Assembly: GCA_024975835.1 (NCBI GenBank) | Contig: GCA_024975835.1_4840.1 | Direction: 5' to 3' (one strand) | Length of the DNA: 64,000 bases | Source of the DNA: a phage | Shown: positions 36,862-54,300 of the stretch, piece after piece | Layout: the number at the start of each line of letters is the position of its first letter | Position numbering within the stretch: position 1 is the stretch's first letter | Made by a program: the position numbers and the translations under genes | Notes under the pieces: model-generated | What the model was told of the DNA's origin: nothing | The model's database searches: none | Seen by the model: the letters and a program-made list of their open reading frames with translations, nothing else

Positions 36862-36875
36862 TGGCTAAATATCTT
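36862..36875 (+). promoter_or_regulatory. late-promoter-like motif CTAAATA (T4 TATAAATA analogue)
   Basis: GGCTAAATATC about 40 nt upstream of the gp6-like start; motif recurs upstream of six other plus-strand structural genes. Confidence 0.45.
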
Positions 36876-36911
36876 CAACACCATATTCAAACTCAGGTGA
36901 TGGAGATTATC

Positions 36912-38690
36912 ATGGCCACGCAAACAGTCCCTTCACTCGATGTCAGGGCTTTCGAGTATCTTATCAAGAAGCGTATGAAAGCTGATCCAACTTTCAAGGA
37001 TTATGACTTTGAAGGTTCTGGTCTCAGTGCAATCGTGCGTATCTTGGCCTCGGATGCCAACTCTATCGGGTTCATGCAGAACATGCTGAATGGCGAAAGC
37101 CATCTTCACTCTGCTCAACAGCGTTCTAATGTCGGTCTTGCGGCCGGGTTCTTGTCGTACACCCCTCATAACTACCAGGCGGCGTACCTGTATGCAAACG
37201 TCACAGTCACTCCATATGACGCCAGCACGGCTCCGGACACGATTATAATGGATCGCCGCGCGATGTTCATTGGGGCGAAGGATGGCAAATCCTACAACTT
37301 CACGGTTGAACAACCTGTGAGTGCCTCTCTTGTAGACGGCTCTTACAAGTTCGAGAACATCAAACTCATACAGGGTAACTGGCTGTACAAGTCCTATGAC
37401 GTGGAAGGCAGCGCGATTTCTACCTATGTGATCCCATCTTCTTCCGTGGACATCGACCATATGGTAGTGCAGGTACAGGAATCTGAGACATCTGACGTGC
37501 GGTCTACCTTCTCACGGTATGTCAGCCCGTTCGATTTGAGCCAGTATGCGCAACTCTACTTCGTTGAGCTGGGGTTGGACGGAATGTACACGTTCGAATT
37601 CGGTGATGGGTACATCTGCAAGCGAGTAGAAGACGGCAATGTTGTGTACCTCCAGTATCTGGAGACAGCTGGTGCGGACGGCAATGACATCACTGCCTTG
37701 TCCTCCGCGTCTTCCATCGGGGGATTCAACCTTGTAGATGTTGAGCTGGTGTCAGAACGTTCTTCCGGCGGTGCGGACCCAGAGAGCATTGAGGACATCA
37801 AGCGCCTTGCTCCGCTGGCTTATCAGGCAGAGGGTGCGGCGGTAGCCGAAGTCGATTATGCTGTGTTGACCGAGCGTCTGTTCTCCAACGTCTCCCGCGC
37901 CAAAGCATATGGCGGAGACACGCTCTCTCCGCCCGACTCCGGATACGTTTACATTGCTGTGGTGCCTTCTGTTGGTGAGACGCTCTCGGACGCCGAGAAG
38001 GCAGATATCGTGGCGACGTTGGACAAGTACAATGTGGGTACGATCACACCCAAGATTGTCGACGCTGAACTGACTTATGTTGATGTCACCACCCGCGTGT
38101 TCTGGGATCCGACTTCCACGTCCTATACCGAAGAGCAGTTGAAGACAGTCGTGAAGAACGGTGTTGTCAACTGGGGCTTGGGGAACCTAGAAGGATTCGA
38201 CGAACTGTTCGATAAAGAGCAGTTACAGTCGGCCATCACCGACATGGACAGATCGATAGTGTCAAACATCACTTCTGTGAAGTATAAGCGCCATTTCAAG
38301 CCAGACTATGGGGTACTGGACAGCTTCACATTCGATTTTGGGCGCTCGATTGCGTCTGGTTCTGTGCGTATCAGTGGGTTTAAGCCGCTTCCGGCCGAGG
38401 TCGAATTCACTTACTACATACGCGACGTCAGTGGTGTCCTGAATATGTACAAGGTGAGTACAACAGACACGACCAAGGAATATCTGGTACAAGCTGTTGG
38501 AACGGTTGATTATGTGAATGGCGTTGTTGAACTCCAGCGTATCATAGTATCCAACTACAACACTGAGGGTGTGACAATAATTGTGTCTCCAGACGGTCTT
38601 GACCAGAACATTCAGGCCACACAGAATCAGGTGCTCCGCATCGGTGCTGTAACTGTGGAGCCGGAGGTGCGTTATGTCCAAAGATCTTAA
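36912..38690 (+). CDS. 6: baseplate wedge protein (T4 gp6-like)
   Basis: KDYDFEGSGLSAIVRILAS resembles the N-terminal region of T4 gp6 as recalled; about 590 aa; start at ATG 36912 with GGTGATGGAG site. Confidence 0.65.
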   Translation: MATQTVPSLDVRAFEYLIKKRMKADPTFKDYDFEGSGLSAIVRILASDANSIGFMQNMLNGESHLHSAQQRSNVGLAAGFLSYTPHNYQAAYLYANVTVTPYDASTAPDTIIMDRRAMFIGAKDGKSYNFTVEQPVSASLVDGSYKFENIKLIQGNWLYKSYDVEGSAISTYVIPSSSVDIDHMVVQVQESETSDVRSTFSRYVSPFDLSQYAQLYFVELGLDGMYTFEFGDGYICKRVEDGNVVYLQYLETAGADGNDITALSSASSIGGFNLVDVELVSERSSGGADPESIEDIKRLAPLAYQAEGAAVAEVDYAVLTERLFSNVSRAKAYGGDTLSPPDSGYVYIAVVPSVGETLSDAEKADIVATLDKYNVGTITPKIVDAELTYVDVTTRVFWDPTSTSYTEEQLKTVVKNGVVNWGLGNLEGFDELFDKEQLQSAITDMDRSIVSNITSVKYKRHFKPDYGVLDSFTFDFGRSIASGSVRISGFKPLPAEVEFTYYIRDVSGVLNMYKVSTTDTTKEYLVQAVGTVDYVNGVVELQRIIVSNYNTEGVTIIVSPDGLDQNIQATQNQVLRIGAVTVEPEVRYVQRS

Positions 38691-39528
38691 TAACGGACAC
38701 AATGGGGTGAAATATGAAACCCCATTGTTTTACCAGAATGAATTCCCAGTATTCATCGAGTTTATGGATACGTTCTTCAACTGGTTGTATCGACAGCAGG
38801 GATTCACCGAAGAGGAGATCTTGGCGTATCTGGCAGACACTGGTGGCTGGGTGAACCCAAATACGGATCAGTCTCCTATTGAGCAGTTGATTGACATCAA
38901 GAAGCGCAAGACGCCAGGTACTGAGGCCAAAGACTTCTTGGAAGACAAGTTCCTGACGCGCACGTTTGAGAACATGATGGCGCTAGACTTCGAAGATTTG
39001 CTGGACGTGGACGGTCGGCCATTAATCTCAATGGAAGACAAGAACGAACGCATCGACGATTGGTATGCTGATTTTGGATTCCAGAGAACGGTTGATAAGT
39101 CCTTCCTGGAGTTCGGGAAGTTTGTGCCAGTTGGTTCGGACAGTTTGGTGACTTCAGACGGAGACACTCTCTCTGTATATGTCGAGGGAACTGAACGCCG
39201 GACACTGGACCATGTACGCTGGTTGAAGTTACTTAAACACATTTATCGCATTCGCGGGACGAAGAAAGCGATTGAATTGTTCTTCTGGATTTACTTTGGT
39301 TGCCCAGTGAGTGTGTATTATCCCAAGGAAGCAATTGGTGGCCTGGATGACAACTTTGAATGTGACGGCGCGACAGGAATGCGTGACGATTACTACTATG
39401 ATGAATTCACGTATGTGATAAGAGTTCCTGGCAACGTATCTGATTTTGAAGGTGTGTTTGATCGCGTCTTCCGTCAGCATTTCCATCCTGCTGGGTTTAC
39501 TGTATTCCTAGAAAGTTCAAGGAGTTAA
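38674..39528 (+). CDS. baseplate-associated structural protein (putative)
   Basis: 284-aa ORF coupled to gp6-like gene (GGAGG site, 17-nt overlap); assignment by position only. Confidence 0.4.
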   Translation: MSKDLNNGHNGVKYETPLFYQNEFPVFIEFMDTFFNWLYRQQGFTEEEILAYLADTGGWVNPNTDQSPIEQLIDIKKRKTPGTEAKDFLEDKFLTRTFENMMALDFEDLLDVDGRPLISMEDKNERIDDWYADFGFQRTVDKSFLEFGKFVPVGSDSLVTSDGDTLSVYVEGTERRTLDHVRWLKLLKHIYRIRGTKKAIELFFWIYFGCPVSVYYPKEAIGGLDDNFECDGATGMRDDYYYDEFTYVIRVPGNVSDFEGVFDRVFRQHFHPAGFTVFLESSRS

Positions 39529-39530
39529 AA

Positions 39531-40721
39531 ATGGCCGATTTTCTGAGTCAATACACAGGTCAGCAGATTGATGCAATCCTTTCTTCTGTTGACGATAAAA
39601 TAAGCAAGACTGATGTTGTCAACGATTTCGCTGTTGATGATCCGTTGTTCCCTCCTTCAGCTCATTTGACATACGAGCTGAAGCGTTCTGTGGATAATAT
39701 CTACGACACACTGGAAAACAAAGTGATCCGCACCGACGGTGGTGAACAAACGATCAACGGGAGAAAGACTTTTGTTGCGTTGTTGACCGCCAACGGCGGC
39801 CTGACTGTTCCGGCTGGAAAGAAACTTTCTATCGCGGATGAGCCTACGATAGCGACAGATGGTGTTAACCTGAGCATGTTGAGAAAGCATGGTGTCAGTG
39901 AAGACACTACCCCACCTGGTTCTGGTTTGGCTGGGGAGTTGTTGGCATCCGGATATTACAAATTCAATTTGGATTTCACCAAATTGTCTGCGTATATCGG
40001 ATCAACGTTGCCGACTTCAATCCCAGTACAAACAGATTCTGGAGCGCGTTATTGGACAATGACTGCATTTTTTGATGCGTTGTTTGCAGATAACCGATTT
40101 AATGGATATGTGACAACGACAGCGTATGATGCAGATATGCTGAGTTTAGAGTCCCAGATTAATAACATCAACACATCGTTGAACGGGAAAGTCAACACAT
40201 CGACTTACAACACTAAGATGGCGTCATTGGATTTGAGTATCTCCAATATCAATACGTCTCTGGGTAATAAAGTCGAGGTCAGCACGTACAACACGAAGAT
40301 GACATCTCTGGATAACAGCATCAGTTCTCTTTCCAGTGATAAAGTTAATGTATCAACGTATAATGCCAAGATGACCTCTGTCGACAATAGTTTAGGGAAC
40401 GCCGTTTATCGTACCAAAACGAATTTGTCTTCTTACACGGTTTCGGCTTCTGGGACGACGGCTCTTCCAGATTTTGATTTGGTGAACCTTTGTCAAATAC
40501 TGGTGACCGCGCAATGGGGAACAGGTAACGTTGTTGATACATATCGAGTAACCATAACTCGCGACGGAACTATCAAATCGGAGTTGTTGGTTCAGAAAAG
40601 TACGAGCGGTACAGTGACGTTCACAGGTTCTGTGGTGGGTGGTAAATTGAGAATTTCCGTTGTTAATGCGAACACGACGACTGCGTGCTACGTTGACTAC
40701 AATCTAGTCGCTTCTTTCTAA
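39531..40721 (+). CDS. tail fibre/fibritin-like protein with internal 27-aa tandem repeats
   Basis: AAGGAG site; three repeats of the KVNTSTYNTKM-SLD-SIS type; Ser/Thr/Asn-rich. Confidence 0.5.
   Translation: MADFLSQYTGQQIDAILSSVDDKISKTDVVNDFAVDDPLFPPSAHLTYELKRSVDNIYDTLENKVIRTDGGEQTINGRKTFVALLTANGGLTVPAGKKLSIADEPTIATDGVNLSMLRKHGVSEDTTPPGSGLAGELLASGYYKFNLDFTKLSAYIGSTLPTSIPVQTDSGARYWTMTAFFDALFADNRFNGYVTTTAYDADMLSLESQINNINTSLNGKVNTSTYNTKMASLDLSISNINTSLGNKVEVSTYNTKMTSLDNSISSLSSDKVNVSTYNAKMTSVDNSLGNAVYRTKTNLSSYTVSASGTTALPDFDLVNLCQILVTAQWGTGNVVDTYRVTITRDGTIKSELLVQKSTSGTVTFTGSVVGGKLRISVVNANTTTACYVDYNLVASF
40164..40400 (+). repeat. in-frame tandem repeat (about 81 nt x 3) within the fibre-like gene
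   Basis: Repeated nucleotide and peptide units visible by eye. Confidence 0.5.
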
Positions 40722-40726
40722 AGTGA

Positions 40727-40740
40727 AAACTAAATACCCC
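40727..40740 (+). promoter_or_regulatory. late-promoter-like motif CTAAATACCCC
   Basis: 34 nt upstream of the first tailspike ATG (40774); part of an 11-bp inverted repeat with the GGGGTATTT ribosome-binding region. Confidence 0.45.
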
Positions 40741-40773
40741 TAGATGAAACGAACACATTTAGGGGTATTTGAA

Positions 40774-43700
40774 ATGGCTAATAAACCAACACAGCCTGTT
40801 TTCCCTCTCGGTCTGGTGGCTGAAGAGCAGTCTACTTTGGCTGGTGTCGTCAACACGGGTACGATTGAGCATGGACCAGATGCTGTCCTGACTTTACCCG
40901 AGGGTAATGCCAGCGCAGGACTCCCGTCTTCCGTTCGCTACAATGCCGACTCCGACGAATTTGAGGGCTTCTATGAAAATGGTGGATGGTTGCCGCTGGG
41001 TGGCGGTGGTATCCGCTGGGAAGTCCTTCCGCATGCCTCTACGGCAACGCTCACTGAAGGGCGAGGCTATCTCATTAATAATACCACAGGGGCATCTACA
41101 GTGGTTCTCCCTTCCCCTACGCGTGTTGGGGATTCTGTTACTATTTGCGACGCTTATGGGAAATTTGCCACTTACCCATTGACTGTGTCTCCTTCTGGAA
41201 ATAATTTGTATGGCTCCACTGAAGACATGGCTATAACAACTGATAACGTATCAGCAACGTTCACTTGGTCTGGACCTGAACAAGGTTGGATTATTACATC
41301 CGGCGTCGGTCTTGGCCAAGGTCGTGTCTACAGTCGTGAAATCTTTACAAAAATTTTGGCGTCTGAGACAAGTTCTGTCACTCTCAATACTCCACCAACA
41401 ATCGTGGACGTGTATGCTGATGGAAAACGTCTTGCGGAATCCAAATATTCACTAGATGGGAATGTAATCACTTTCAGTCCTTCTTTGCCAGCCAGCACAG
41501 AACTTCAGGTGATTGAATATACTCCTATTCAATTGGGTATTGGGGATGGTTCTGGCTCTTCCACGATTACCTGGGTCTATAATGGGGGTTCAGCGATTGG
41601 TGGTGAAACCGAAATCACGTTGGACGTCGTTGTTGATGATGTTCCGGCCATTGATATAAACGGAAGTCGCCAGTATAAAAATCTGGGGTTCACATTCGAT
41701 CCATTAACCAGTAAAATCACTCTTGCGCAAGAACTGGAACCAGAGGATGAAGTTGTTGTAATTATCAATGGAACACCAAACATCTATAATCAAATTGATC
41801 ATACTTTGCGGGAAGTTGCTCGCGCAACCAATGTTAAAGATACAGAGGTCGTTTATTTTAGTGTTGGTGCTGCGTTAAGTGGGTATAAAGTTATTTATGA
41901 CAAGGAGACGCAAAGGGCTTATCCCTTGCCTGCTGATATTGCCCCTGGTACTACTGCTGTCAGTCTTAGTTCTTCCGCTGTACTTGTGCATTCAGCGGGT
42001 TCTGTAGACCTCGGGGAATTGGCTGTTACTCGTGAAGAGTACGTCACATTGTCCGGAACATTTGATACTGGTGTAACAGTTAATACCAAGAATGAACTGG
42101 TTGTTTTTACTGATGGTAAGTACCGTTGGGATGGGGTGTTGCCTAAAGAAGTTTCTGCTGGCTCAACTCCAGAGACTGCTGGTGGTGTAGGTGCGGGAAA
42201 ATGGTTGAGTGTTGGTGATGTATCATTGAGAGCCGACTTACTGTCAGGTGGCATGACTGATTTAATTGGATTTCCTGGGTACAACAATCTTACAGCATTC
42301 TTGCATACCACTGTTCGTACAGTAGAAGAGTTCAGAAGTGACGGACTAACTGACGCACAGGTATTCCAAGCGGCAATCAATGCAGGTAACGTGCGTGTGC
42401 CAGCAGGTAGCGTTATTAACATCACAGGGAATATTGATATCACTATCCCAGCCAATCGTTTAATTGTTGTAGATGACGGAGGTATATTACGCTCTAACGG
42501 TCGTTTTACAGCTTACGGCGTAAACGATGTTCATTGGGTAATTAACGGACTAGTTGAAAGCACTGGCATGGTTGCGGCCCCGGCAAAATCTGGATGGCCC
42601 AATACAGCAGAAGGCACTCAAGCGGGAGATGAGCGTGGGTTTATTGAGTTTGGTGGTGTTGTATTCGCCGGTAACGATGGGAAGAATTATTCTGTAACTG
42701 GTTCAGGGCACATTCAGGGTCCATGGTCTGGAACTCCTAACGTTTCAGATTTAGCCAATCAGTTAAATAAAAAGGGTATTGCTGCGTGGAACTGCTCAGG
42801 ATTCACTGTTGAAGGCGTTAGTATCGACGGCTTTGAAGGTGAGCAAGTGTATTGGTTTGCTCGCAACGCAGACAACAGAGACGCAATTTTCAATAGAGTA
42901 AAAAGTACCAATGCACGTTTTAACGCCCTGAACATGAACGTGTACAGCGCAACAAAAAATATTCGTGTGATCGATTGTTACACCAATAATTCGTACAACG
43001 GAATTGAATCATCTGCTGGTGATATCATTAACACAATCCATGACAATCCGGTTAACACAGGTATTCTGTTTGGTTCAGGTACTGGTGGTGGCAACCGATT
43101 AATTGAAGGCAATCAGGTGAACGAATGCCTCGGAACACCTTATTCACTACTTTATAATAAGGACTATGAAAGTCGTGGGTATGTACCTAACGTTACAGTG
43201 GTAAACAACACCGCAACAAACCCCGGCGTTCACTTCATCGCCATCTCAGGCATCACTGGATTCAAAGTCGCCAACAATACATGTTACGGGCTTAAAACAG
43301 GTAGATTTATTCAGGCCACCGTTTTACAAGGCGGTATTATAGAAAATAATACTAACTACAAACCATCACCAGGGACAGAGCACGTCTATCGTGGCGAATG
43401 TTATAGCGTAGAAGAGCATAATAACGCGCGTGTACTTTTAGGCGGTTCGTATGTTACTGCCGCCGCGTCAGACCACGCCATAACCGGGGGGAATTCAAGC
43501 GCTATAACGACATTCGGCAATCGTGAAAACTTCAAGGATTTACGTGCTGACAGTCCAGCAATCGGAACTGGCGCAGAACTTAGATACTCTGTTGATATAG
43601 GCGCCGCATTTACTCCTGTATCGTTAAGTATGCAACTGACCACATATGGGGGTTCAGGCGCTCAAGCTGACTGGTCTATCAATAACCTAAAGATAAATCC

Positions 43701-44253
43701 TAATGATGTACTTGGGCAGTCATGGGTGTCTCGACATACAGGACATTGGGAACCTGGGACTGATGGTATACAAAATTTCGGGTCACCAACGCGCCGTGTT
43801 AACAACAGCTATTTCACGGTAGCGCCTACTGTAACGTCTAATGAAATGGCTAAAACTGCGCTGTTAGATCTATCTGAAGCAGAACGTAACGCGGCATTAG
43901 AAATTAAAGATAACATTCGCAAGTATAAGCTATTAGATGCTATCGCTATTAAAGGGGAGGATGGTGCCCGTTGGCACTTCGGTGTGGGTGCACAAACGGT
44001 AGGCGATATAATGAGAAAACATGGACTTAATCCTGCTGACTATGGGTTTTGGTGTCACGATACATGGGAAGACCAATACACGGATGTAATGAAAAAAATT
44101 TATACCGGAAATACCGTTGTAAATGAGGAAGGACTTTCAGTTCCTGAATACACATTAGAACCAACAGGTGAAAGGATGCTTGTTAGGACCGCCGGAGAAA
44201 ACTACGGCATTCGTTATGATGAATTGTCTATGTTTATATTAAGTGCAATATAA
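40774..44253 (+). CDS. tailspike protein with N-terminal anchor region, beta-helix and C-terminal chaperone-like domain
   Basis: 1159 aa; conserved about 130-aa module (VKDTEVVYFSVGA...KYRWDG) shared with the next tailspikes; Gly/Asn/Thr-rich beta-helix composition; start at 40774 because the promoter motif precludes the 40744 ATG. Confidence 0.7.
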   Translation: MANKPTQPVFPLGLVAEEQSTLAGVVNTGTIEHGPDAVLTLPEGNASAGLPSSVRYNADSDEFEGFYENGGWLPLGGGGIRWEVLPHASTATLTEGRGYLINNTTGASTVVLPSPTRVGDSVTICDAYGKFATYPLTVSPSGNNLYGSTEDMAITTDNVSATFTWSGPEQGWIITSGVGLGQGRVYSREIFTKILASETSSVTLNTPPTIVDVYADGKRLAESKYSLDGNVITFSPSLPASTELQVIEYTPIQLGIGDGSGSSTITWVYNGGSAIGGETEITLDVVVDDVPAIDINGSRQYKNLGFTFDPLTSKITLAQELEPEDEVVVIINGTPNIYNQIDHTLREVARATNVKDTEVVYFSVGAALSGYKVIYDKETQRAYPLPADIAPGTTAVSLSSSAVLVHSAGSVDLGELAVTREEYVTLSGTFDTGVTVNTKNELVVFTDGKYRWDGVLPKEVSAGSTPETAGGVGAGKWLSVGDVSLRADLLSGGMTDLIGFPGYNNLTAFLHTTVRTVEEFRSDGLTDAQVFQAAINAGNVRVPAGSVINITGNIDITIPANRLIVVDDGGILRSNGRFTAYGVNDVHWVINGLVESTGMVAAPAKSGWPNTAEGTQAGDERGFIEFGGVVFAGNDGKNYSVTGSGHIQGPWSGTPNVSDLANQLNKKGIAAWNCSGFTVEGVSIDGFEGEQVYWFARNADNRDAIFNRVKSTNARFNALNMNVYSATKNIRVIDCYTNNSYNGIESSAGDIINTIHDNPVNTGILFGSGTGGGNRLIEGNQVNECLGTPYSLLYNKDYESRGYVPNVTVVNNTATNPGVHFIAISGITGFKVANNTCYGLKTGRFIQATVLQGGIIENNTNYKPSPGTEHVYRGECYSVEEHNNARVLLGGSYVTAAASDHAITGGNSSAITTFGNRENFKDLRADSPAIGTGAELRYSVDIGAAFTPVSLSMQLTTYGGSGAQADWSINNLKINPNDVLGQSWVSRHTGHWEPGTDGIQNFGSPTRRVNNSYFTVAPTVTSNEMAKTALLDLSEAERNAALEIKDNIRKYKLLDAIAIKGEDGARWHFGVGAQTVGDIMRKHGLNPADYGFWCHDTWEDQYTDVMKKIYTGNTVVNEEGLSVPEYTLEPTGERMLVRTAGENYGIRYDELSMFILSAI

Positions 44254-44257
44254 CAAA

Positions 44258-44277
44258 AACCCCGCTTTGGCGGGGTT
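44258..44277 (+). terminator. rho-independent terminator
   Basis: AACCCCGCTTTGGCGGGGTT hairpin then CTTATTATAC. Confidence 0.5.
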
Positions 44278-44288
44278 CTTATTATACC

Positions 44289-44352
44289 TTTGTTCATAAA
44301 TTTATTAGTTCAGACTAAATACCCTATATTGGCAAATCCTTTATGGGGTATT
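44289..44352 (+). repeat. direct repeat copy 1 (intergenic promoter/leader cassette)
   Basis: About 64 nt nearly identical to 46949..47012 (one mismatch by eye), containing TTGTTCATAAATTTATTAG and CTAAATACCC. Confidence 0.6.
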
Positions 44353-44355
44353 ATC

Positions 44356-46674
44356 ATGATTTCTCAATTCAATCAACCACGCGGCTCCGCTTCCATAGAA
44401 GTTAACAAACAATCTATCGCTCGAAATTTCGGTGTCAAAGAAGACGAAGTCGTTTATTTCACTGCTGGTATTGATCTCAGTGGATTTAAAGTAATTTATG
44501 ATGAGACCACCCAACGGGCTTATTCTCTCCCTTCCGGTATTGTTTCAGGGACAACTGCAATTAGTCTGGACGAACGAGCTATCCTCACTCATTCCGCTGG
44601 TTCTGTTGATCTAGGGGAACTTGCCGTAGCCAGAGAAGAATATGTAACCTTACCTGGTTCATTTGATACCGGTGTAACCGTCAATGCTAAGAATGAATTG
44701 GTTGTCTTTACCGACGGCAAGTACCGTTGGGATGGGGAGATTCCCAAAATAGTACCTGTCAACACAACCCCTAAAGATACTGGGGGTGTTGGTCTAGGGG
44801 CATGGTTAAGAGTCGGCGATGCATCTTTGCGTTCTGAAGTTTACTCAAATATGGCTTGGGTTTCTCCTGAAATGTACGGTGCACTTGAAACGGAATCTGA
44901 TGCGGATACTCAAGCTGTTATAGATGCGTTTATTACCGCGAAGACAATGGGGCTGGCTGTGAAGCTGTCCAGAATATATAAGTGTGATCAAAACATATCA
45001 GTAGCTAATTTTTACGGAGATATTTTTGGCGTAAGTATGGCCACATGCGGAATAAAATTTGCTGCTGGATATGGTCTTATCATTGATAACTCTGGGACCA
45101 CAGTAGTACGCAAACCTGTAGGTCTTTGTAATTTCACCATTAAAGCCACTGGTAAACGACAAGGCACTGCTCTAGAGTTTCTAGGTACTGGTGGAATAGC
45201 TTATGCACGACAACTTATTGTAAGAGATTTAGATGTATCAAATGATGCTGGAACCCCTACCTCTTTTGATGTAGTATTCAAGTTAAACCGTGCAGGTCAA
45301 TGTGTATTTGATGGGGTGAATGTCGCTGGCGGTGGCACAAGCGACCCCAACGCTCGCATGGGCAAAATATTCGACCTGTACTCAACAAAGAATATCAATG
45401 TTGTCAACGGTTCTTATCAGAACTTCGACACCTTCATGTACGCGCATGACGATACCGAAGGTGTTGTGGTTTTCGGTAACCACATCATCGCAGGTCGTCG
45501 TGGTGTTGTCTCAGAAAACAATGTTGGCAACTTGTTCCAGGTAACGAACAACCACTTCAACACATCGTTGAGTGCTGTAGAGTTGGGCGATCTGTCTAAC
45601 AACGGTGGGAACCATAGCATAATCACCGACAACTTCTGTATGGTATGGAATGGGATTCCTGAAGATGATACTACGCCATATATCGGGTTCAAGTCCTGTG
45701 CCATGTACGGAACCTATAGTGATAATGAGGTGCTTCTGTCTGGTTTCACTAAAGACGTTACTCACACCTTGTTTACTTCTAATGCCACAGGGACCAGAAC
45801 GGCACAATACAATATAGTAAGCAACCCAAGAGTTAATAATTGTACCAGAGGCATTCATATGCTGGCTGGCACCCAATCGAACCATGTGAGCAACGTCCAG
45901 CGCGTAGGCGTAACACTGGCAAATGCCATCATAGATGAAGGGGCAAACAACAGGTCATGGATGTTTGATGTAGATAATAATGCATTTATGACCAGAAACA
46001 TAAAATTGTGCACTCCAGGTTCAGCCGTTGCGCAGCAAATTCGTTTTTACTCCGCTACTGATGCAAATACACCAAGCGCCATTCTCCGAGTATCTGGAGG
46101 CGTTGCCGGTGTTGGCGGGGATGGGACGGCAGAGCTTACTGCTGGTACTACCGTCTTTAAAAACATTAGACCGTCAGCTGCAAACACTTATAGCTGCGGA
46201 TCTAGCGGTGCACCGTGGTCTGGCGGGTTCACACAAACTGCATTCACCGTGACATCTGATGCTGATTACAAATCAGATCCACTGCTGATGACTGATGATA
46301 TTCTTGATGCAGCAGAAGAGGTACAACTTGTCCAGTATCAATATCTCGACAGGATTGAAGAAAAAGGAGCTGACGGTGCCCGCTGGCACTTCGGAGCCAT
46401 TGCACAACGGTATGTAGAGGCATTTGAAAGACACGGGCTTGATGCTCATCGCTTTGGGTTCATCTGTTATGATGAATGGGGTGATGCTCCTGCTGTCATA
46501 GATGAAGATACTGGCGAAGTGATCACGCCAGCTATTGAGGCAGGATCAAGATACGGCATTCGTTATGAAGAAATGCTGGTAATGGAAGCAGCGCTGCAAC
46601 GCAGAAACTATGCGCGGCTACTTGATAAATACGAAACACTTGAGGCTCGTATTAGCTCATTAGAGAATAAATAA
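44356..46674 (+). CDS. tailspike protein with C-terminal chaperone-like domain
   Basis: 772 aa from ATG 44356 (GGGG site); N-terminal module shared with the other tailspikes; C-terminal GARWHFG...YGIRYEE region shared with the first tailspike. Confidence 0.7.
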   Translation: MISQFNQPRGSASIEVNKQSIARNFGVKEDEVVYFTAGIDLSGFKVIYDETTQRAYSLPSGIVSGTTAISLDERAILTHSAGSVDLGELAVAREEYVTLPGSFDTGVTVNAKNELVVFTDGKYRWDGEIPKIVPVNTTPKDTGGVGLGAWLRVGDASLRSEVYSNMAWVSPEMYGALETESDADTQAVIDAFITAKTMGLAVKLSRIYKCDQNISVANFYGDIFGVSMATCGIKFAAGYGLIIDNSGTTVVRKPVGLCNFTIKATGKRQGTALEFLGTGGIAYARQLIVRDLDVSNDAGTPTSFDVVFKLNRAGQCVFDGVNVAGGGTSDPNARMGKIFDLYSTKNINVVNGSYQNFDTFMYAHDDTEGVVVFGNHIIAGRRGVVSENNVGNLFQVTNNHFNTSLSAVELGDLSNNGGNHSIITDNFCMVWNGIPEDDTTPYIGFKSCAMYGTYSDNEVLLSGFTKDVTHTLFTSNATGTRTAQYNIVSNPRVNNCTRGIHMLAGTQSNHVSNVQRVGVTLANAIIDEGANNRSWMFDVDNNAFMTRNIKLCTPGSAVAQQIRFYSATDANTPSAILRVSGGVAGVGGDGTAELTAGTTVFKNIRPSAANTYSCGSSGAPWSGGFTQTAFTVTSDADYKSDPLLMTDDILDAAEEVQLVQYQYLDRIEEKGADGARWHFGAIAQRYVEAFERHGLDAHRFGFICYDEWGDAPAVIDEDTGEVITPAIEAGSRYGIRYEEMLVMEAALQRRNYARLLDKYETLEARISSLENK

Positions 46675-46762
46675 AAATCCTACTCTCCTGAGAGTACTAT
46701 GTATATGCATTCGTTATTTACGGTTGTAAACTATAGTAATTACATTAACAATCCAATAGGTA

Positions 46763-46780
46763 AGCCCCAGCATATGGGCT
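46763..46780 (+). terminator. rho-independent terminator
   Basis: AGCCCCAGCATATGGGCT hairpin followed by TTTTTGTTG. Confidence 0.5.
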
Positions 46781-46914
46781 TTTTGTTGTACCCCAAACAA
46801 TCCTTTATGTAGACTGTTTTAGTCAATTACGACTTAACTAACCTGAGAAAGTCCCTATGGGAAATGAACCAGATAACGTAACTCTAGCGAGAGACTGAGA
46901 AACATTTCGAAAAC

Positions 46915-46937
46915 CAAAACCCCGCTTCGGTGGGGTT
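46915..46937 (+). terminator. rho-independent terminator (second, tandem)
   Basis: AACCCCGCTTCGGTGGGGTT hairpin then TCTCTTATAC; homologous to the 44258 terminator. Confidence 0.45.
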
Positions 46938-46948
46938 TCTCTTATACA

Positions 46949-47012
46949 TTTGTTCATAAATTTATTAGTTCAGACTAAATACCCCATATTGGCAAATCCT
47001 TTATGGGGTATT
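46949..47012 (+). repeat. direct repeat copy 2 (intergenic promoter/leader cassette)
   Basis: Near-identical to 44289..44352; includes the late-promoter-like CTAAATACCCC and GGGGTATTT leader. Confidence 0.6.
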
Positions 47013-47017
47013 TTCAA

Positions 47018-49081
47018 ATGACCAGAAACGTCGAGAGCATCTTTGGAGCGGTCGTAACAGCTCCACACCAGATTCCATACACTTACACAGCAACTGGCGG
47101 AGAGAAGTTTATCTCCCTCCCTTTCTACCCTGTCACTGGAGTAGTCACAGTCAACGGTAGTATGCAAGTTCCGTTAGACAACTTCGAGATAGACGGGAAT
47201 ACGTTAAACCTTGGGCGCGCATTATCCAAAGGCGATGTTGTGTTCTGTCTGTTTGATAAGATTCTTTCGCCAGAAGATTATAAAACCGGGATTCGAATCT
47301 ATAAGTTTCAGGCTGTAGGAGGTGAAACTGAGTTCACTCCTGATTTCACATCTTATGGAGTCCAATCTCTTTATATCGGTGGTGAGTACAAAACACCCGA
47401 AATTGAATATTCCTATAACAGCACGACAGGGAAAGTGTCTTTGCAAACTGCACTGACTGCAGGCGTTTGGGTTGTGGCTGAAATGTCTGCTAAACAACCG
47501 AATATCGGTCCGTTGTTTGACCGAAGTATTCAAGAAATCGCTCGTGCAGCTAACGTAAAAGACTCTGAAGTAATCCTTAGTACAGATAGTACCCAGTTCC
47601 TGAATGACAAGAAGATTGTTTATTCTGTTAGTGAACAGAAGGCTTATGGGTTACCAGTATTACCTACTAACGTATTCATTCAGTCTGTGGATAATGGCAA
47701 GTTAACTTACTCCCCAGGTAACATTGCTGTAGACCTGGTTCCTGTTCCTGGCTCTGCTGAGTCACTTACTGCTTCGGATGTTCCAACTACTTCTGGGGAT
47801 TCCGTACAGGATGGGTTAGATAGTATTGATGTATTTATTGATACTGACTCATATAAGAGAGTTGGGGATATTCGCGGTTATACAACCACGCAGGATGTAA
47901 CTCCTGTTAACGCAATTATTGCAGCAAATCAAGATGTTGGTATTATTCGGCTACCTAAGGGTAACTGGACTGGTAACTTTGCTCTGCTAAATAAAACTAG
48001 TTTAGATGGCACTTCACTTGCTACTACAACGTTAACTGTTCCAATTAATACAGCAGGTATTAAACCCTCCGGTACTGATGTACGTGGTATTAACATTAGT
48101 AACATTGCTATGCAGGTGGTGGGTGCTGTGTCTGGTGGGGCACCAATTGGTACAGGTATTGGTCTGGATATGACTGGCTGTACTAAGATGGTTAACTGTA
48201 CTATTTCTAATATCTATAGTGATTTCTTTGATATTGGTTTCAAAGCTGGCCCTGCTGATTTCTCTAACGTTTACAATAACATTCGCTGTAATAACAACCG
48301 TATTGGTTTTGATATTTCTAGTAACGGGCAGATTATTGAGAATACCTGGAACAGCCCATATGCTGCTAACTGGACCCAGATTGGTATGAAGATTAGTGGT
48401 GTTGGTGGTCAGGTAATCAATGCACCAAACTTTGGGCATAATGGCACCGCTGGCGCTTACTTCATGCACATTGACACCAACTCCCGTGGAGTGATTATTA
48501 ATGGTGCTAACTTCGAAATGGATGCTGTAGGTGGTAAACTTTCTGCTGGTAGCCAAGCAGTAATTGTAGCTTCTGACTCAGCAGTTACTTTTAATGCCCC
48601 TGTATTCAATAAGGTTGGTGCTGCTGGCCCTAATACCTATCTTTTTCGTATCCGTGGTACATGTGTAGTACATATTAACAATCCGCAGATTTACAATGAT
48701 GATGGGATTGTTGGACACTTACGTATTGAAGATACTGCTACTGTATATCTGAATGACCCTAAAGGCGTTATTACGGTAATTTCTGTGGCAGCAGGTGCTA
48801 AGTTGATTCGTGTACATGAAAAACTGGCTAATGCACCTAGTTATACGGCTGTTCAATCAGTTCAGTCTGGTACAGTTGTAAACGTTGGTTTCTATCCTAC
48901 GTATGCTATAGGTGTACCGGATTTCCATGCCAGCGCACTACCAGCTACATTTAAGTATGCCGTTACCTTTGATACGTATAACTCTACCCATGGAACTATG
49001 GTAGCTAGGGTTTACGATACTACTACCGGGTTGTATGTTACTTCAGTATCTGTTCCCACATTCATTCAAGCATGGCGTTAG
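47018..49081 (+). CDS. tailspike protein (divergent N-terminal module, beta-helix)
   Basis: 687 aa; Gly/Asn/Thr-rich repeats; VKDSEV remnant of the shared module; start at 47018 after the promoter cassette. Confidence 0.65.
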   Translation: MTRNVESIFGAVVTAPHQIPYTYTATGGEKFISLPFYPVTGVVTVNGSMQVPLDNFEIDGNTLNLGRALSKGDVVFCLFDKILSPEDYKTGIRIYKFQAVGGETEFTPDFTSYGVQSLYIGGEYKTPEIEYSYNSTTGKVSLQTALTAGVWVVAEMSAKQPNIGPLFDRSIQEIARAANVKDSEVILSTDSTQFLNDKKIVYSVSEQKAYGLPVLPTNVFIQSVDNGKLTYSPGNIAVDLVPVPGSAESLTASDVPTTSGDSVQDGLDSIDVFIDTDSYKRVGDIRGYTTTQDVTPVNAIIAANQDVGIIRLPKGNWTGNFALLNKTSLDGTSLATTTLTVPINTAGIKPSGTDVRGINISNIAMQVVGAVSGGAPIGTGIGLDMTGCTKMVNCTISNIYSDFFDIGFKAGPADFSNVYNNIRCNNNRIGFDISSNGQIIENTWNSPYAANWTQIGMKISGVGGQVINAPNFGHNGTAGAYFMHIDTNSRGVIINGANFEMDAVGGKLSAGSQAVIVASDSAVTFNAPVFNKVGAAGPNTYLFRIRGTCVVHINNPQIYNDDGIVGHLRIEDTATVYLNDPKGVITVISVAAGAKLIRVHEKLANAPSYTAVQSVQSGTVVNVGFYPTYAIGVPDFHASALPATFKYAVTFDTYNSTHGTMVARVYDTTTGLYVTSVSVPTFIQAWR

Positions 49082-49085
49082 TAAC

Positions 49086-49112
49086 TGCCCCCCCCTTCTC
49101 TCCTGGGAGGGG
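49086..49112 (+). terminator. stem-loop (weak terminator) between tailspike genes
   Basis: CCCCCCT...AGGGGGG hairpin followed by TTTCC. Confidence 0.35.
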
Positions 49113-49140
49113 GGTTTCCTAGAAAAACAAAGAGGTTTAT

Positions 49141-51219
49141 ATGAACGAAATGTTCTCACAAGGTGGTAAGGGTTCAACTGGAATCTTAACCAACAAACAA
49201 GCAGTAGCTCGTCACTTTGGGGTTAAACAATCTGAGGTTGTTTACTTCTCAGTGGGTGCTGTACTAAGCGGTTATAAAGTTATCTATGACAAAGTGTCAC
49301 AGCGTGCTTATTCCTTACCTGCCGACATTGGTTCAGGGGTTACTGCTGTAAGCCTTAGTCCTGCTGGGGTATTAGTTCACTCTGACGGTAATGTTGACTT
49401 GGGTGCACTAGCCGTTACCCGCGAAGAGTATGTAACCCTACCTGGCTCATTTACTACAGGCGTTACTGTTAATAGTAAAAATGAACTTGTTGTGAGTGTT
49501 GGTGTTAAATACCGTTGGGATGGTTCTCTACCTAAAGTAGTTCCTCCTGATTCTACTCCATTAAGCACTGGGGGAGTTGGCCCAGGGGCATGGATAGTAG
49601 AAGGTGTTGCTGGGTTGGAGCAACGTTTGGCTTCCTGGGAAGGTTCATCCATTATTGACTCTGGTAATCTGTCCCTTTACAAAAAGAGTGGTGTATTTGG
49701 TGATGGTGGGGAAGTAACTGATAAGCAACAGGTTATTAAGCATACAGATGGATTTTGGTACAAGTATACTGGAACCCTGCCCGTTAGCTATGGCTCTGCC
49801 CCAGACTCTTCCTGGACTAATGTTGGTAAGTTAACCGGGTTTAATGAACACTCACCTGAGAACTTTGGGGCAATCCCGAACGATGCCAGCTTTGACTGTC
49901 TACCTGCTATAAAATTAGCTATAGCTACAGGCACATTAAACCTGGATGGTAATTCTACCTACCACGTAACTGATGAGGTTATCATACCCTCACATCTACG
50001 TGGGAATTTGAATGGGGCAACAATCAAAGCAATCGGTCCTACCTGGCCTGTATTAAAATCTGTTGTTCGTGTTAGTAAATTTCCTATTGGAACCCCAACC
50101 GTTGATGTAGCTAATACTGAGAACCAGGTACGAGGGCTACGTTTAATTGGTAGTTTGAACATAGACTGTGCAGATATTGCATCGTATGGTTTTTACGCAC
50201 GACTAATGTGTGCAGAATCCGAGATGGGTAGTATCTATTCTTACAATGCTAATAAGTATGGCATTGTAATGTTCGCTTGCTGGTATTTTCAGATGGGCGT
50301 GCTTCATGCAAACAATTGTGCAAGGGGGATGGCTTTAGGTTACTCAACAGAAGGGGAGCAGGGCGATACTTACGTAAACGCAACATACTTCCCACACATT
50401 AGTGCATGGGGTACTGATAAGTCTACGGGGCTAGGCTATGACCCAATCACCGACGATGCAAGTAAGTACACAATAGGTGCTGGTATTATTCTAGGCCGTG
50501 GTTTGTCCACTAGTGTTGGTGTGCTGTGCTCTGAGAATACATCCGGTGCTGGTGTGGTAACAATGGACCCTGCTGCGTGGGATATTGGAGTTATGTACTG
50601 TGAGGGCAACAGTAAAGACTTCACTCAGGAGGGTGAGCCGAAGGTATCATTGTTGTCATCTAAGGCTAACAGCGAGAGTCATACACTTACCATCTCTACA
50701 CTTCACCTATCTGCTGGTTGTGGCATTTTAACCAGAAGTAAACAAGAACGGGTGTTGATCAGAAGTCTTTACCGTTTTGATAATTCAAAAACCTTCCACT
50801 CTTACTGCACAGAAGATACAATAGAGATTGGTAGTAGCAACTACTATGTACTTAATGGTCATAATTACAATGCACCTGCTGCACTTATTAAAGAACCTCT
50901 CAATGTGGATTTTGTGCGATCAGGGCTGACCTTGAGTGAGTGGACACCTACCGTTATTGGTTACTTTCCTGGCAGCACGTCAGAACAACAGCTTTATGTT
51001 AAGCTGCCTGTAAGCCCTAGTGGGCTAGATCTACAGATTGCTAGTGAAGATGGTACAGAATACATCACTGTAACTGGCACAGATTTTAAAGCCTCTTTAA
51101 CCAAGAAAAGGCTGCCCAGTAAGGTGTATGAGATAAAGATTGGGTCTGTCTCAACAGTAGCTGTTACTGATTGCTCCATTTTAATCAGAAGTAAAAAAGG
51201 AGATTGGTACTACTGGTAA
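49141..51219 (+). CDS. tailspike protein
   Basis: 692 aa; AAAGAGG site; N-terminal module VKQSEVVYFSVGAVLSGYKVIYDK...KYRWDG closely matches the first two tailspikes. Confidence 0.65.
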   Translation: MNEMFSQGGKGSTGILTNKQAVARHFGVKQSEVVYFSVGAVLSGYKVIYDKVSQRAYSLPADIGSGVTAVSLSPAGVLVHSDGNVDLGALAVTREEYVTLPGSFTTGVTVNSKNELVVSVGVKYRWDGSLPKVVPPDSTPLSTGGVGPGAWIVEGVAGLEQRLASWEGSSIIDSGNLSLYKKSGVFGDGGEVTDKQQVIKHTDGFWYKYTGTLPVSYGSAPDSSWTNVGKLTGFNEHSPENFGAIPNDASFDCLPAIKLAIATGTLNLDGNSTYHVTDEVIIPSHLRGNLNGATIKAIGPTWPVLKSVVRVSKFPIGTPTVDVANTENQVRGLRLIGSLNIDCADIASYGFYARLMCAESEMGSIYSYNANKYGIVMFACWYFQMGVLHANNCARGMALGYSTEGEQGDTYVNATYFPHISAWGTDKSTGLGYDPITDDASKYTIGAGIILGRGLSTSVGVLCSENTSGAGVVTMDPAAWDIGVMYCEGNSKDFTQEGEPKVSLLSSKANSESHTLTISTLHLSAGCGILTRSKQERVLIRSLYRFDNSKTFHSYCTEDTIEIGSSNYYVLNGHNYNAPAALIKEPLNVDFVRSGLTLSEWTPTVIGYFPGSTSEQQLYVKLPVSPSGLDLQIASEDGTEYITVTGTDFKASLTKKRLPSKVYEIKIGSVSTVAVTDCSILIRSKKGDWYYW

Positions 51220-51278
51220 TAGATAGGAAAAGCCCCCAGAATTGGGGGCTTATTTCTTTCTATTCCTCGGTTGGTTGT

Positions 51279-51292
51279 ATACTAAATATCTC
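51279..51292 (+). promoter_or_regulatory. late-promoter-like motif CTAAATATC
   Basis: TACTAAATATCTC about 35 nt upstream of ATG 51323. Confidence 0.4.
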
Positions 51293-51322
51293 TATAATGG
51301 CACCTATCGATGGAGCATCAAA

Positions 51323-54300
51323 ATGCAAGAAATGAACCTCAACCGCCGCCCATATTGGGATGACTGGAATCCAGAGAAGCGTTTTTCGCGCATCCTATTC
51401 CGTCCGGCACCTATCAAAGTTCAGACGCGTGAACTGAACCAGATGCAGACCATCTTCCAGGATCAACTGGAGAAACTTGGCAACCATCTGTTCAAAGACG
51501 GTTCAATGGTTATCCCCGGCGGCCTAACGATCACCAACACTGCTGTGTCCATGAAGTTCACTCTGGCTGGTGGTAGTGAGTTCACTGATCTGGAAGGTAT
51601 CTCCGAACTCTATGTTCTGGGCAAGGACAACAATGCGAAAGCACGCGTCCTGTCCTTGGAACGTTATCCGGCTGAGCCAGATACAATGTATGCCATCTTA
51701 GAGATGACTGAGAGTGGTAGTTCAGACGGTTTCGAAGCTGGCGACAATCTATACTTCAACACCTATGACGTGAACGATAACTTCATCCGTGTCGGCTATG
51801 GTGTGGCCGATACTGTTGGTGGTTCGATTGTCGCTCGCATGACAAAGGGTGTTTATTTCGTTCGTGGTATGTTCCTGGATGTTGAACCAACCACTTTGAT
51901 CGTAGACAACGCATCGAACTCTACATCTCACCGCATTGGCTTCAAAGTTACAGAAACAATCGTGACTGAAGCAGAAGATGAAAGTCTGTTCTCCAATGCT
52001 CAGGGTACTCCGAACTCTAAAGCCCCTGGTGCGCATCGCCTGCGCGTCGACCTCGTGTTGTCTCGCTACGGTTATGATGAAGAAGTGGCCGACTTCGTTG
52101 AACTGGCGAAGGTGAAAGACGGTCGCATTCAGTCCATGGTCACCCAGTCAACGTACAACATCCTCGAAGACGCCATGGCTCAGCGTACCTATGAGACTAA
52201 TGGTGACTACAACGTCTCTACTCACCAGATCGACCTGCGCGAACATCTGAAACAGAACAACAACGGCGGCGTTTACACTCCGGCTGAAGGTGGTGATGAA
52301 AGCAAATTCGTGGCGGTTATGAAGCCAGGGATATCCTACGTTCGTGGTCGTCGTATCGAAAACCTCGGCGAAGAGCTGGTCATAATTGAAAAAGCCCGTG
52401 ACACTGATATCCTGAACAACAACCCTGTGGCTGTTTCGACTGGCAACTATCTGGTGTCCAAGAACTCCAAAGGGGTTCCGGTTGTCTCCCGCACAATCCG
52501 CTACAAGTTCCTGAACGCATCTAGCGATGTGCAGGCCACCGCCCTGCTGATTTCGGCAGAGCGCTCCGGTACTGAATTCCGTCTGTATATGCGCGACCTG
52601 GTTGTGACTGGAGACATGGGTACGGTGACCAAAGTCGCTTATGAAGAAAGCGGTACAACGATGTTCTCTTGCGAACTGGAGTCCAATCAGTTCAGTCAGA
52701 GTTCGGCGATTGACCTGATCTTCCCTCTTCCTGTATTTGGTGTGAAGACCCTAGCACCTACAGGCACCATCGACATCAACTACACTGTCCTGCGGTCAAA
52801 CAAGATCACGTTGAACGCCGCTGGTGCAGGCTCAATCTCTGCTCCTCTGGGTTACAGCTTCAGCCCTGAGTTTTCACTGTACTCCGCAGCGAAAGCAGAT
52901 GGCACTGCAGCTCAGTTTGATATCTCTTCGGGACTGTCCCTGGCTGGTACTCCGGTTGGTTCAGCACTGCAGATTTCCCTGGGCGCGGGGTACGCCAACC
53001 AGTCTATCAACCTGTTGGCATTGATGGTCCGCACCACAGCGACGATCAAGACCAAGACTGTTACCGAAGTCACCGAGACTGTGACGTTTACTACGGCAGC
53101 CAGCGTACAACTTGGGAACCACGACGGATACAAGCTGGTCAGCGTGAAGAACGCAAATGGTGCTGACGTCACCTCGAACTTCACTCTGGACGGCGGTCAG
53201 CGTGATGCTGCATACTACCTTTCTAACCTCGTATCGTCTACTGGATCCATCTCAGGCGTGTTCACAGTGGTGTACCAGTACTTCGCTCACAGTTCTGGTG
53301 ATTTCTTCACAGCGGACTCCTATTCGTCCATCAACTACCCAGACATCCCGAACTATGTTTCATCCAGTTCTGGTACTGTGTATGGGTTGGCCGACAGCCT
53401 GGACTTCCGTCCTAAGATCACCAACGGAACGTCTGACACGGACATGGTTCGCCCGAACACCGCGATCATCCTAGATGCAGAGTACTATCTGCCTCGTATT
53501 GATGCCGTGTATCTGGCAGACAACGGCGTGTTCAACGTTGCTCGCGGTGTGAGTTCCAACAGCCTGGCTTCCCCTGCGATCCCAGACAACGGCATGCGTC
53601 TGTACGAATTGATGATCCCACCATACACGGCCAACATTGACGACATCCAGATTCGCACTATCGACAACCGCCGCTACACGATGCGCGATATCGGTAAACT
53701 GGAGACCCGTATCTCCAATGTCGAATATTACACCTCACTGTCTCAGCTGGAATCCTCGGCGATGGCGCAACAGGTGTTCGATCCAATTACTGGCAACCCG
53801 CGCTTCAAGAACGGTATCGCAGCAGACCCGTTCAAAGACTTCCGTCTGATCGACGATTTGTCTGCAGACTGGGTGGGTTCAATCGACACTGACAATGGTC
53901 GCCTGCGTCCGTTTGTTCAGCAGAACGCGATTGACCTGACGCCAGTCGGTTGGAACAACGTTCAGGATGGCATGGTTGTATGCAACTACACCCGTGAGAT
54001 CTCTGTCCGCCAGGACTATGCAACCACGACCATCAACGTGAACCCGTATGCGGTGTTCAACTGGGAAGGTTTCCTGAAACTGAACCCAACTACTGATTAC
54101 TGGTTTGAGAACTACTATGTTACCCCACGTGTGATCAACGAAACGATCAACACCCGTGGTGCGATCAAAGAAGGTTCTGTGTATGGCACATGGCGTACTG
54201 TGTCCGTGTCTGAGCGTGTGTGGGAACCGCATGGTGCGGGTGGTGTATGGTGGGGCTACCGCTACCGCACGACTGTGTCTACCCGTGACATTACCACGTA

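Follow-up and report, generated by a model that had tools for sequence, protein, structure and literature searches.

The window analysed here, a stretch of 64,000 nucleotides of phage DNA (NCBI GenBank assembly GCA_024975835.1, contig GCA_024975835.1_4840.1), contains between positions 40774 and 51219 four consecutive long open reading frames (ORFs) on the + strand, which fill this interval and encode proteins that are in part alike and in part unrelated. What do these four genes build, and how might they have come by their present make-up? Our results identify the region as the tailspike protein (TSP) gene cluster of an Agtrevirus, and we consider it very probable that the four genes build a branched receptor-binding complex of the type formed by phage CBA120. 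The preliminary description of the locus had called it a tailspike cassette with an affinity to the Ackermannviridae, and that assignment is upheld, since the best matches domain by domain are the solved structures of CBA120 TSP1 through TSP4, together with the Pfam family Tail_spike_N.

Identity of the cluster and its docking domains

Positions 20000-40000 of the window are about 96% identical in nucleotide sequence to Agtrevirus genomes; its relatives include Enterobacter phage fGh-Ecl02, Salmonella phage vB_CECAV_050 and Escherichia phages A221 and RPN242, and we assign the window as the genome of an Agtrevirus (family Ackermannviridae, subfamily Aglimvirinae). A tsp cluster is defined as consecutive tsp genes between three baseplate genes and a vriC-like gene (PMC11721090), and this is the position in which the four genes are found: baseplate genes, TSP4, TSP3, TSP2, TSP1 and a DUF4815 (VriC-like) gene follow one another in the same order in the window and in vB_CECAV_050, YX22 and CBA120. 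Upstream of the tsp genes there is a phrog_3838 match, where the syntenic relatives annotate baseplate genes. The four genes are listed below, with start codons set by alignment to the solved CBA120 proteins.

40774-44253, + strand: TSP4 gene, 1159 amino acids; ORF with a phrog_7992 tail spike match
44356-46674, + strand: TSP3 gene, 772 amino acids; ORF and CBA120 alignment
47018-49081, + strand: TSP2 gene, 687 amino acids; ORF and CBA120 alignment
49141-51219, + strand: TSP1 gene, 692 amino acids; ORF and CBA120 alignment

The alignment matters most for TSP3, whose mechanically called ORF starts at an earlier TTG at 44290, within the promoter region; residue 23 of that ORF aligns to residue 1 of CBA120 TSP3 (5w6f/6nw9, E 1e-83). 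Likewise, residue 6 of the TSP2 ORF aligns to residue 1 of CBA120 TSP2 (6w4q, E 4e-124). The N-termini are 85% (TSP4, residues 1-489), 83% (TSP3, residues 1-162), 77% (TSP2) and 75% (TSP1, residues 1-171) identical in amino acid sequence to their CBA120 counterparts. In phmmer searches TSP4 residues 1-338 match the CBA120 TSP4 N-terminal structures 7rej and 7rfo (E about 1e-195), while TSP2 residues 1-246 match 6w4q at the E value given above and TSP1 residues 1-171 match CBA120 TSP1 (4oj5, E 2e-72). Because synteny and N-terminal identities of 75-85% agree, the assignment of the four genes by sequence as orthologues of CBA120 TSP4, TSP3, TSP2 and TSP1 is secure. CBA120 itself is a Kuttervirus (orf210-213; PDB 4oj5, 6w4q, 5w6f/6nw9, 5w6h and 7rej) and thus belongs to another subfamily than the window, yet gene order, flanks and N-terminal architecture are the same in both.

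The N-terminal domains are arranged as follows (XD and TD domain names are taken from PMC11721090).

40774-41808, + strand: TSP4 anchor and gp10-like XD1-XD3, residues 1-345; phmmer matches to 7rej_A, 7rfo_A and 7rfv_A
41809-42258, + strand: TSP4 TD1-TD2, residues 346-495; Tail_spike_N E 1e-20; contains the GTTAVSL motif
44356-44850, + strand: TSP3 TD1-TD2, residues 1-165; Tail_spike_N E 4e-21
47018-47530, + strand: TSP2 gp10-like XD2-XD3, residues 1-171; phmmer matches to 6w4q, 9d80 and 9d83
47531-47767, + strand: TSP2 copy with TD1 only, residues 172-250; BLAST and MAFFT
49141-49635, + strand: TSP1 TD1-TD2, residues 1-165; Tail_spike_N E 6e-24

This is the published architecture of such clusters, in which TSP4 carries an anchor and XD1-XD3, TSP2 carries XD2-XD3 and TD1 only, and TSP1 and TSP3 start with TD1-TD2. 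TSP4 and TSP2 thus have gp10-like anchor and XD domains, from which the branched complex would be built and which were absent from the preliminary description; that description had centred on a module of about 130 amino acids shared by three of the four genes, located at their N-termini, with a degraded copy in the third. The module itself is borne out. In ORF numbering, residues 356-501 of gene 1 are 67% identical to residues 20-165 of gene 4 over 146 amino acids (BLAST, E 6e-52), gene 2 is 61% identical to gene 4 over 165 (E 2.5e-58) and genes 1 and 2 are 38% identical over 372 (E 4e-56); a MAFFT alignment of TSP4, TSP3 and TSP1 gives 58% identity over 177 columns. E values of 1e-52 to 1e-58 and the matches to solved structures rule out a low-complexity artefact. 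These alignments equate the module with the tandem domain pair TD1-TD2, and Tail_spike_N, found in TSP4, TSP3 and TSP1, covers TD2. Its N-terminal position holds for TSP3 and TSP1 but not for TSP4 and TSP2, where it lies behind other conserved domains.

The copy in the third gene is indeed partial, but to call it degraded is misleading. In the MAFFT alignment TSP2 follows the module no further than its first half, with 27-30% identity across some 107 columns; the BLAST E value is 2e-4 against gene 4, and against gene 1, when the preceding XD3 is included, the XD3-TD1 stretch is 32% identical (E 1e-13). TD1 alone is the published normal state of TSP2 (PMC8432352) and is common to CBA120 and vB_CECAV_050. 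Since the TSP2 N-terminus is 77% identical to that of CBA120 TSP2 and the TD1-only state is family-wide, the alignments identify this copy as an old conserved paralogue and not a product of recent decay.

In the CBA120 model the XD3 domains of TSP4 and TSP2 are the binding sites for TD1 of TSP1 and TSP3 (PMC11721090, PMC8432352), and by analogy with that assembly model TD1-TD2 would be a docking and neck element, so that the main known role of the module is docking and not just that of a recombination handle. Following the published model, TSP4 would attach to the baseplate by its N-terminal anchor and XD1 and would pair with TSP2 through their gp10-like XD2 domains, and TD1 of TSP1 and TSP3 would dock on XD3 of TSP4 and TSP2. 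TD1-TD2 would then have to stay conserved, and everything downstream of it would be exchangeable. Each TSP would form a trimer and carry a different right-handed beta-helix body, each body binding, and probably cleaving, a different surface polysaccharide, so that the phage could recognise as many as four receptors. What the sequences and models display directly is the gene order, the identities of the domains, their structural homology, the conserved dyads, the mosaic breakpoints and the occurrence of the bodies on other adaptors; how the complex assembles, whether the bodies are enzymes, autoproteolysis (below) and the identity of the receptors are what we infer by analogy with characterized systems.

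Several of these proteins are already public. The exact TSP4, TSP2 and TSP1 proteins are present in a 64,932-bp Logan contig and in an NCBI E. coli assembly (TSP4 locus EJS6251366, TSP2 EJS6251368.1 and TSP1 EJS6251369.1); the contig index, queried for the exact TSP2 sequence, returned no record. TSP4 and TSP3 are represented in the NCBI E. coli assembly (EJS6251366.1, P0084) by shortened products of 1008 and 607 amino acids that start from an internal Met, unlike the window ORFs, which are open back to the canonical starts; either the assemblies differ or the annotators chose another start. Antisense ORFs of 103-178 amino acids within the cluster have no PHROG match.

Receptor-binding bodies and C-terminal chaperone domains

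Downstream of the docking domains the four proteins divide into the following parts.

42259-43836, + strand: TSP4 body, residues 496-1021; right-handed beta-helix and C-terminal stalk (AlphaFold/Foldseek)
43837-44250, + strand: TSP4 chaperone, residues 1022-1159; Peptidase_S74-like, predicted cut before Ser1022, GVGAQ
44851-46254, + strand: TSP3 body and stalk, residues 166-633; beta-helix inferred
46255-46671, + strand: TSP3 chaperone, residues 634-772; Peptidase_S74, predicted cut before Ser634, GAIAQ
47768-49078, + strand: TSP2 body, residues 251-687; beta-helix and small C-terminal beta domain (AlphaFold/Foldseek)
49648-51216, + strand: TSP1 body, residues 170-692; beta-helix supported indirectly

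The bodies had been described as unrelated to one another, and they appear to be so: BLASTP among the four gives no match below E 0.04 outside the C-terminal domain, and hhalign of trimmed body profiles gives probabilities of 0.7-43% and no hidden homology among them. A probability of 100% between two untrimmed alignments (A3 and A1) was set aside as probably driven by rows that share the chaperone and adaptor. Pfam searches of the isolated bodies at E values up to 10 returned nothing useful. They also differ from all four CBA120 bodies, to which the window proteins have no detectable similarity beyond the TD domains.

That the bodies are beta-helices was likewise part of the preliminary description; this stands for TSP4 and TSP2, where structure models display it, and for TSP3 and TSP1 it is suggested by matches of homologues and profiles. 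AlphaFold2 models were built on homologue alignments for the TSP2 body and for the TSP4 body with its C-terminal domain. The latter (mean predicted local distance difference test score, pLDDT, 87) contains a modelled right-handed beta-helix, and its body matches the tailspikes of 9NA, Det7, P22 and Dettilon as well as polysaccharide lyases in Foldseek; distant homologues of the TSP4 body carry Pfam Beta_helix, Pectate_lyase_3 or NosD. The TSP2 body model (mean pLDDT 86.6), also a right-handed beta-helix, matches the Sf6, HK620 and CBA120 TSP2 tailspikes and AlgE epimerases. For TSP3, the body profile has a weak match to the beta-helix adhesin PfbA (3zpp, E 5e-4) and one body homologue has a Beta_helix/NosD match; the profile also matches the C-terminal stalk of K5 lyase (2x3h, E 4e-6). 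Among the TSP1 body and 30 homologues, which are joined to 4 adaptor types, Pfam Pect-lyase_RHGA_epim is found in 6 of 31 and Beta_helix in 2 of 31; a profile of TSP1-body homologues found no match among PDB sequences.

Relatives of the bodies are found on several adaptor types. Tailspikes of E. coli, Salmonella and Citrobacter, several of them with a P22 head-binding domain, are 62-74% identical to the TSP4 body and chaperone, and the TSP3 body with its chaperone is about 80% identical to 747-residue E. coli tailspikes with a P22 head-binding domain and S74. These full-length matches are to P22-like prophage tailspikes (Head_binding PF09008, body and S74), which differ from the window proteins in having the P22 head-binding adaptor instead of TD1-TD2 and a single spike type per virion. 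The TSP2 body has no more than 13 homologues, which are 49-60% identical to it and whose adaptor is of the T7-tail, P22 head-binding or Tail_spike_N type. Tail fibres in the roughly 40-kb phage records TM1, EFA-1 and EFA-2 match the whole of the TSP1 body at 85-86.5% identity, and proteins of the Ackermannviridae-size phages UP17 and TSP7_1 are 43% identical to it. Because close body relatives sit in E. coli prophages, O- or K-antigens of E. coli and other enterobacteria are the most likely targets, by analogy.

A few further observations concern individual bodies. EFA-1 and EFA-2 were deposited as 'Enterococcus phage', which looks like a host mislabel. The TSP1 body also occurs on proteins of 866 and 1017 amino acids in contigs of about 155 kb from public assemblies, which suggests that it moves between TSP positions within the Ackermannviridae. 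Its early part (49310-49836; ORF residues 172-232, and 159-299 against gene 2) weakly resembles the TD region of other spikes (BLAST E 1.8e-4 and 5e-5) and may be a further TD-like repeat inside a horizontally shared body. Tailspikes of Limestonevirus (Dickeya phages) have a C-terminus that is 44% identical to the last 80 or so residues of TSP2 (48836-49078), the remaining body being unrelated, and the small C-terminal beta domain of TSP2 may thus be a separately exchangeable distal domain.

TSP4 and TSP3, the first two genes, end in C-terminal domains that are 35% identical over 143 amino acids (BLAST, E 1e-17) and make up their last 138-139 residues; a Pfam scan of the proteins and isolated bodies found no such domain on TSP2 or TSP1. 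This agrees with the earlier suggestion that only the first two genes end in a chaperone-like domain, as do Pfam, PDB matches, a conserved dyad and the structure prediction of the TSP4 domain. The TSP3 domain scores 42.6 bits against Pfam PF13884 (gathering score 22). Both domains match the PDB chains 3gw6 (endoNF), 4uw8 (T5 pb1), 3gud (gp12), 6eu4 and 7y5s at E 1e-7 to 1e-21. For TSP4 the phmmer matches range from E 1e-15 to 3e-7 (7y5s, 1e-15; 6eu4, 1e-13; 3gw6, 2e-11; 4uw8 and 3gud), and the C-terminal part of its model has 4uw8 and 3gw6 as its top Foldseek matches; TSP3 was aligned residue by residue to 9vvr, phi29-type gp12 (3gud, which starts SDERHK), 6eu4, 7y5s and endoNF 3gw6. A Ser-x4-Lys dyad is present in each, S1022/K1027 in TSP4 (SNEMAK) and S634/K639 in TSP3 (SDADYK), and the aligned counterparts of these dyads, which lie at the N-terminal boundary of the domain, are SDERHK of 3gud and the endoNF cleavage site. 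Such a Ser-Lys dyad is needed for self-cleavage (PMC3742440). The region before TSP3 Ser634 matches the K5 lyase C-terminal stalk 2x3h; TSP4 residues 998-1019 have low pLDDT, in a monomer model that cannot show a triple helix. Sequence and model thus support the reading of both C-termini as Peptidase_S74-type intramolecular chaperones, and autoproteolysis at the two dyads is a prediction well supported by homology. In this scheme folding of the distal stalk into a trimer would be driven by the chaperone, which would afterwards use the dyad to release itself, by a cut at Ser1022 in TSP4 and at Ser634 in TSP3. Endosialidase K1F (3gw6), phi29-type gp12 (3gud), T5 pb1 (4uw8) and K5 lyase have a like position after the stalk, a dyad and a GxIAQ-type motif, and the window domains differ from these in being joined to Ackermannviridae docking domains and unrelated beta-helix bodies; such chaperone ends on TSP4 and TSP3 also set the window apart from CBA120.

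Some points weigh against parts of the picture drawn so far. XD3 is not always conserved across the family (PMC8432352), and the published CBA120 work itself leaves the mode of TSP3 docking on TSP2 unsettled (PMC11721090). Capsules, and not O-antigens, might be what the bodies recognise. The matches that point to a beta-helix in TSP3 and TSP1 are weak or indirect. Finally, the TSP4 chaperone is divergent: its Peptidase_S74 score of 18.4 bits is below the gathering score of 22, and in the trimerisation motif GxIAQ, which reads HFGAIAQ in TSP3, TSP4 has HFGVGAQ, with Ile replaced by Gly. The low score, a long insertion relative to TSP3 and the departure of GVGAQ from the conserved G-[VA]-I-A-Q also favour the idea that the S74-like domains, at least in TSP4, are not auto-cleaved and stay in the mature spikes as structural or carbohydrate-binding domains. 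We regard this as unlikely, in that the Ser-x4-Lys dyad is kept at the aligned cleavage position in both proteins, PDB sequence matches are strong (E 1e-11 to 1e-21), the TSP4 model fits best to the T5 pb1 and endoNF chaperone structures, and homologous units of body plus chaperone are widespread in prophage tailspikes.

Intergenic elements of the cluster

The spaces between the genes contain a recurrent motif, CTAAATACCC, and hairpins.

40730-40773, + strand: CTAAATACCC and hairpin (ACCCCTA...TAGGGGT) immediately ahead of the TSP4 start codon; probably a late promoter with a 5' leader
44252-44356, + strand: 105-nucleotide cassette, copy 1; terminator-like hairpin at 44258-44277, CTAAATACCC and leader hairpin to the TSP3 ATG
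46912-47016, + strand: 105-nucleotide cassette, copy 2; hairpin CCCCGCTTCGGTGGGG with a T-rich tail, CTAAATACCC and leader hairpin to the TSP2 ATG

CTAAATACCC followed by a short hairpin precedes the starts of TSP4, TSP3 and TSP2 (motif at 40730-40739, 44315-44324 and 46975-46984), and TSP1 is without it; the motif also occurs at 30276 and 30375 on the - strand, and its pattern is found 8 times in the window where 1.98 matches would be expected. In CBA120, vB_CECAV_050 and YX22, CTAAATACC is present a short way upstream of these three starts, a position in which CBA120 and the window share it. Motif and hairpin are probably a late promoter and leader. CTAAATAcCcc has reportedly been proposed as the late promoter of ViI-like phages; searching the literature for the motif string yielded nothing of use. 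General scans for sigma-70 promoters and for terminators did not rise above background, and the features that stand out are CTAAATACCC and the specific hairpins alone. The two 105-nucleotide cassettes form a direct repeat, 91% identical, that could serve as a recombination arm.

TSP1 lacks CTAAATACCC and has a terminator-like hairpin upstream, and some Ackermannviridae are without one of the TSPs, TSP3 not having been found in Limestonevirus (PMC8432352). These facts would fit a phage in which one or more of the genes is a silent or defective spike and fewer than four receptors are used. We think this improbable here: none of the four ORFs is disrupted and each has its conserved docking domains, a good Shine-Dalgarno sequence precedes TSP1, exact TSP1 copies are present in many independent assemblies, and the pattern of three motifs is the same in CBA120, whose four TSPs reportedly recognise O-antigens (PMC8432352).

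An Rfam search of 40000-52000 found no families and a tRNA search of the cluster found none. Four phage tRNA genes (Ser-GCT, Tyr-GTA, Asn-GTT and Met-CAT) lie upstream of the structural region at 32654-33627 on the - strand.

Exchange of bodies and a G7C-like stretch after TSP3

The preliminary description took the modularity of the proteins as a sign of recombinational swapping, and this is favoured by nucleotide comparisons, in which breakpoints fall at the module ends, and by the occurrence of these bodies behind other kinds of adaptor. Against vB_CECAV_050 and YX22 the DNA stays about 97% identical as far as 42229, which is the end of TD2 in TSP4; identity returns only for the N-termini of TSP3 (to 44822) and TSP2 (to 47756), and resumes at 51246 at 97-98%. 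G+C content is 43-45% within the cluster and about 50% elsewhere. Among 50,697 genomes in a phage collection no record covers more than 26% of the cluster, and no deposited phage matches the body of TSP4, TSP3 or TSP2 over its full length. Bodies of the cluster recur elsewhere on P22 head-binding, T7-tail, Phage_tail_fib and Tail_spike_N adaptors. A search for the donor of the TSP3 body did not find one; the closest DNA relatives, L006 (84% nucleotide identity) and L007 (79%; a 41-kb contig whose neighbouring genes include a family-A DNA polymerase gene), share the TSP3 body only and not its flanks. We suggest that the bodies, with the chaperone where there is one, were acquired by recombination just past the TD domains, and that their donors or co-owners would include P22-like prophages, T7-like phages and G7C-like phages.

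The region at the end of TD1 that contains GTTAVSL has been proposed as a recombination site by Sørensen et al. (PMC8432352). This, and a 240-nucleotide DNA repeat family that links three TD regions at 65-73% nucleotide identity, might be taken to mean that the likeness among the modules reflects ongoing gene conversion or recent duplication, with the third copy decaying, instead of an ancient constrained docking set; we consider that highly improbable, as the N-terminus of every TSP resembles its CBA120 orthologue (75-85% identity) more than it does the paralogues encoded beside it (about 58%), from which it follows that the TSP paralogues predate the split of the two subfamilies, and the TD1-only TSP2 is both published and common to CBA120 and vB_CECAV_050.

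One short stretch of the cluster bears on how bodies might be exchanged.

46762-46918, + strand: 157-nucleotide stretch with a terminator hairpin, a spacer and about the first 19 codons of an N4 gp63-like gene (blastn)

It sits between the TSP3 stop codon and the second 105-nucleotide cassette and is 88-90% identical to G7C, F22, phi G17, E20 and others; among the matches listed, all 12 records are 68-73 kb long. A 10-nucleotide deletion breaks the reading frame of the gp63-like start. In the G7C-like Gamaleyavirus phages the matching stretch adjoins the 3' end of the distal tailspike gene gp63.1, and the spikes in the gp63.1 position of the G7C-like gp66/gp63.1 system begin with a TD1-TD2 that is 74-79% identical to that of the window TSP1. 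That system differs from the window's in belonging to a podovirus and having two spikes instead of four, and the G7C and F22 bodies are unrelated to those of the window. Judged by its sequence, the stretch resembles a scar left by recombination between families, with a G7C-like phage as the source. It may be the footprint of a whole tailspike cassette which, 3' flank included, passed to the Agtrevirus myovirus from a G7C-like podovirus (Schitoviridae), a proposal that we judge to be evenly balanced; in that event the TD1-TD2 module and the downstream flank would have acted as the two recombination arms.

Much of this organization has been described before. Four TSPs, XD and TD domains, a TD1-only TSP2, occasional C-terminal chaperones, the recombination site in the TD region and bodies shared with prophages and distant phages are all published, both for the Ackermannviridae (PMC11721090, PMC8432352) and for Agtrevirus (PMC10791037), where the AV101 bodies resemble tailspikes of prophages and of unrelated virulent phages (PMC10791037). 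The Agtrevirus clusters of AV101, vB_CECAV_050, YX22 and fGh-Ecl02 have the same backbone (about 96% nucleotide identity), with conserved N-termini and diverse bodies. Since no record in the phage collection covers more of the cluster than the fraction given above and three of its bodies are without a full-length phage match, the window differs from these clusters in carrying a new set of TSP subtypes. New here are only the combination of bodies and the 157-nucleotide G7C-like scar.

For phage biology, then, the locus is a confirmation and not a discovery, its modular design having already been described. The three bodies of TSP4, TSP3 and TSP2 would add TSP subtypes to host-range prediction schemes and depolymerase catalogues. 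If the transfer from a G7C-like phage is true, the scar would be a dated, junction-resolved example of the passage of a receptor-binding protein between families, and as such it is a small but concrete piece of evidence on how tailspike exchanges happen.

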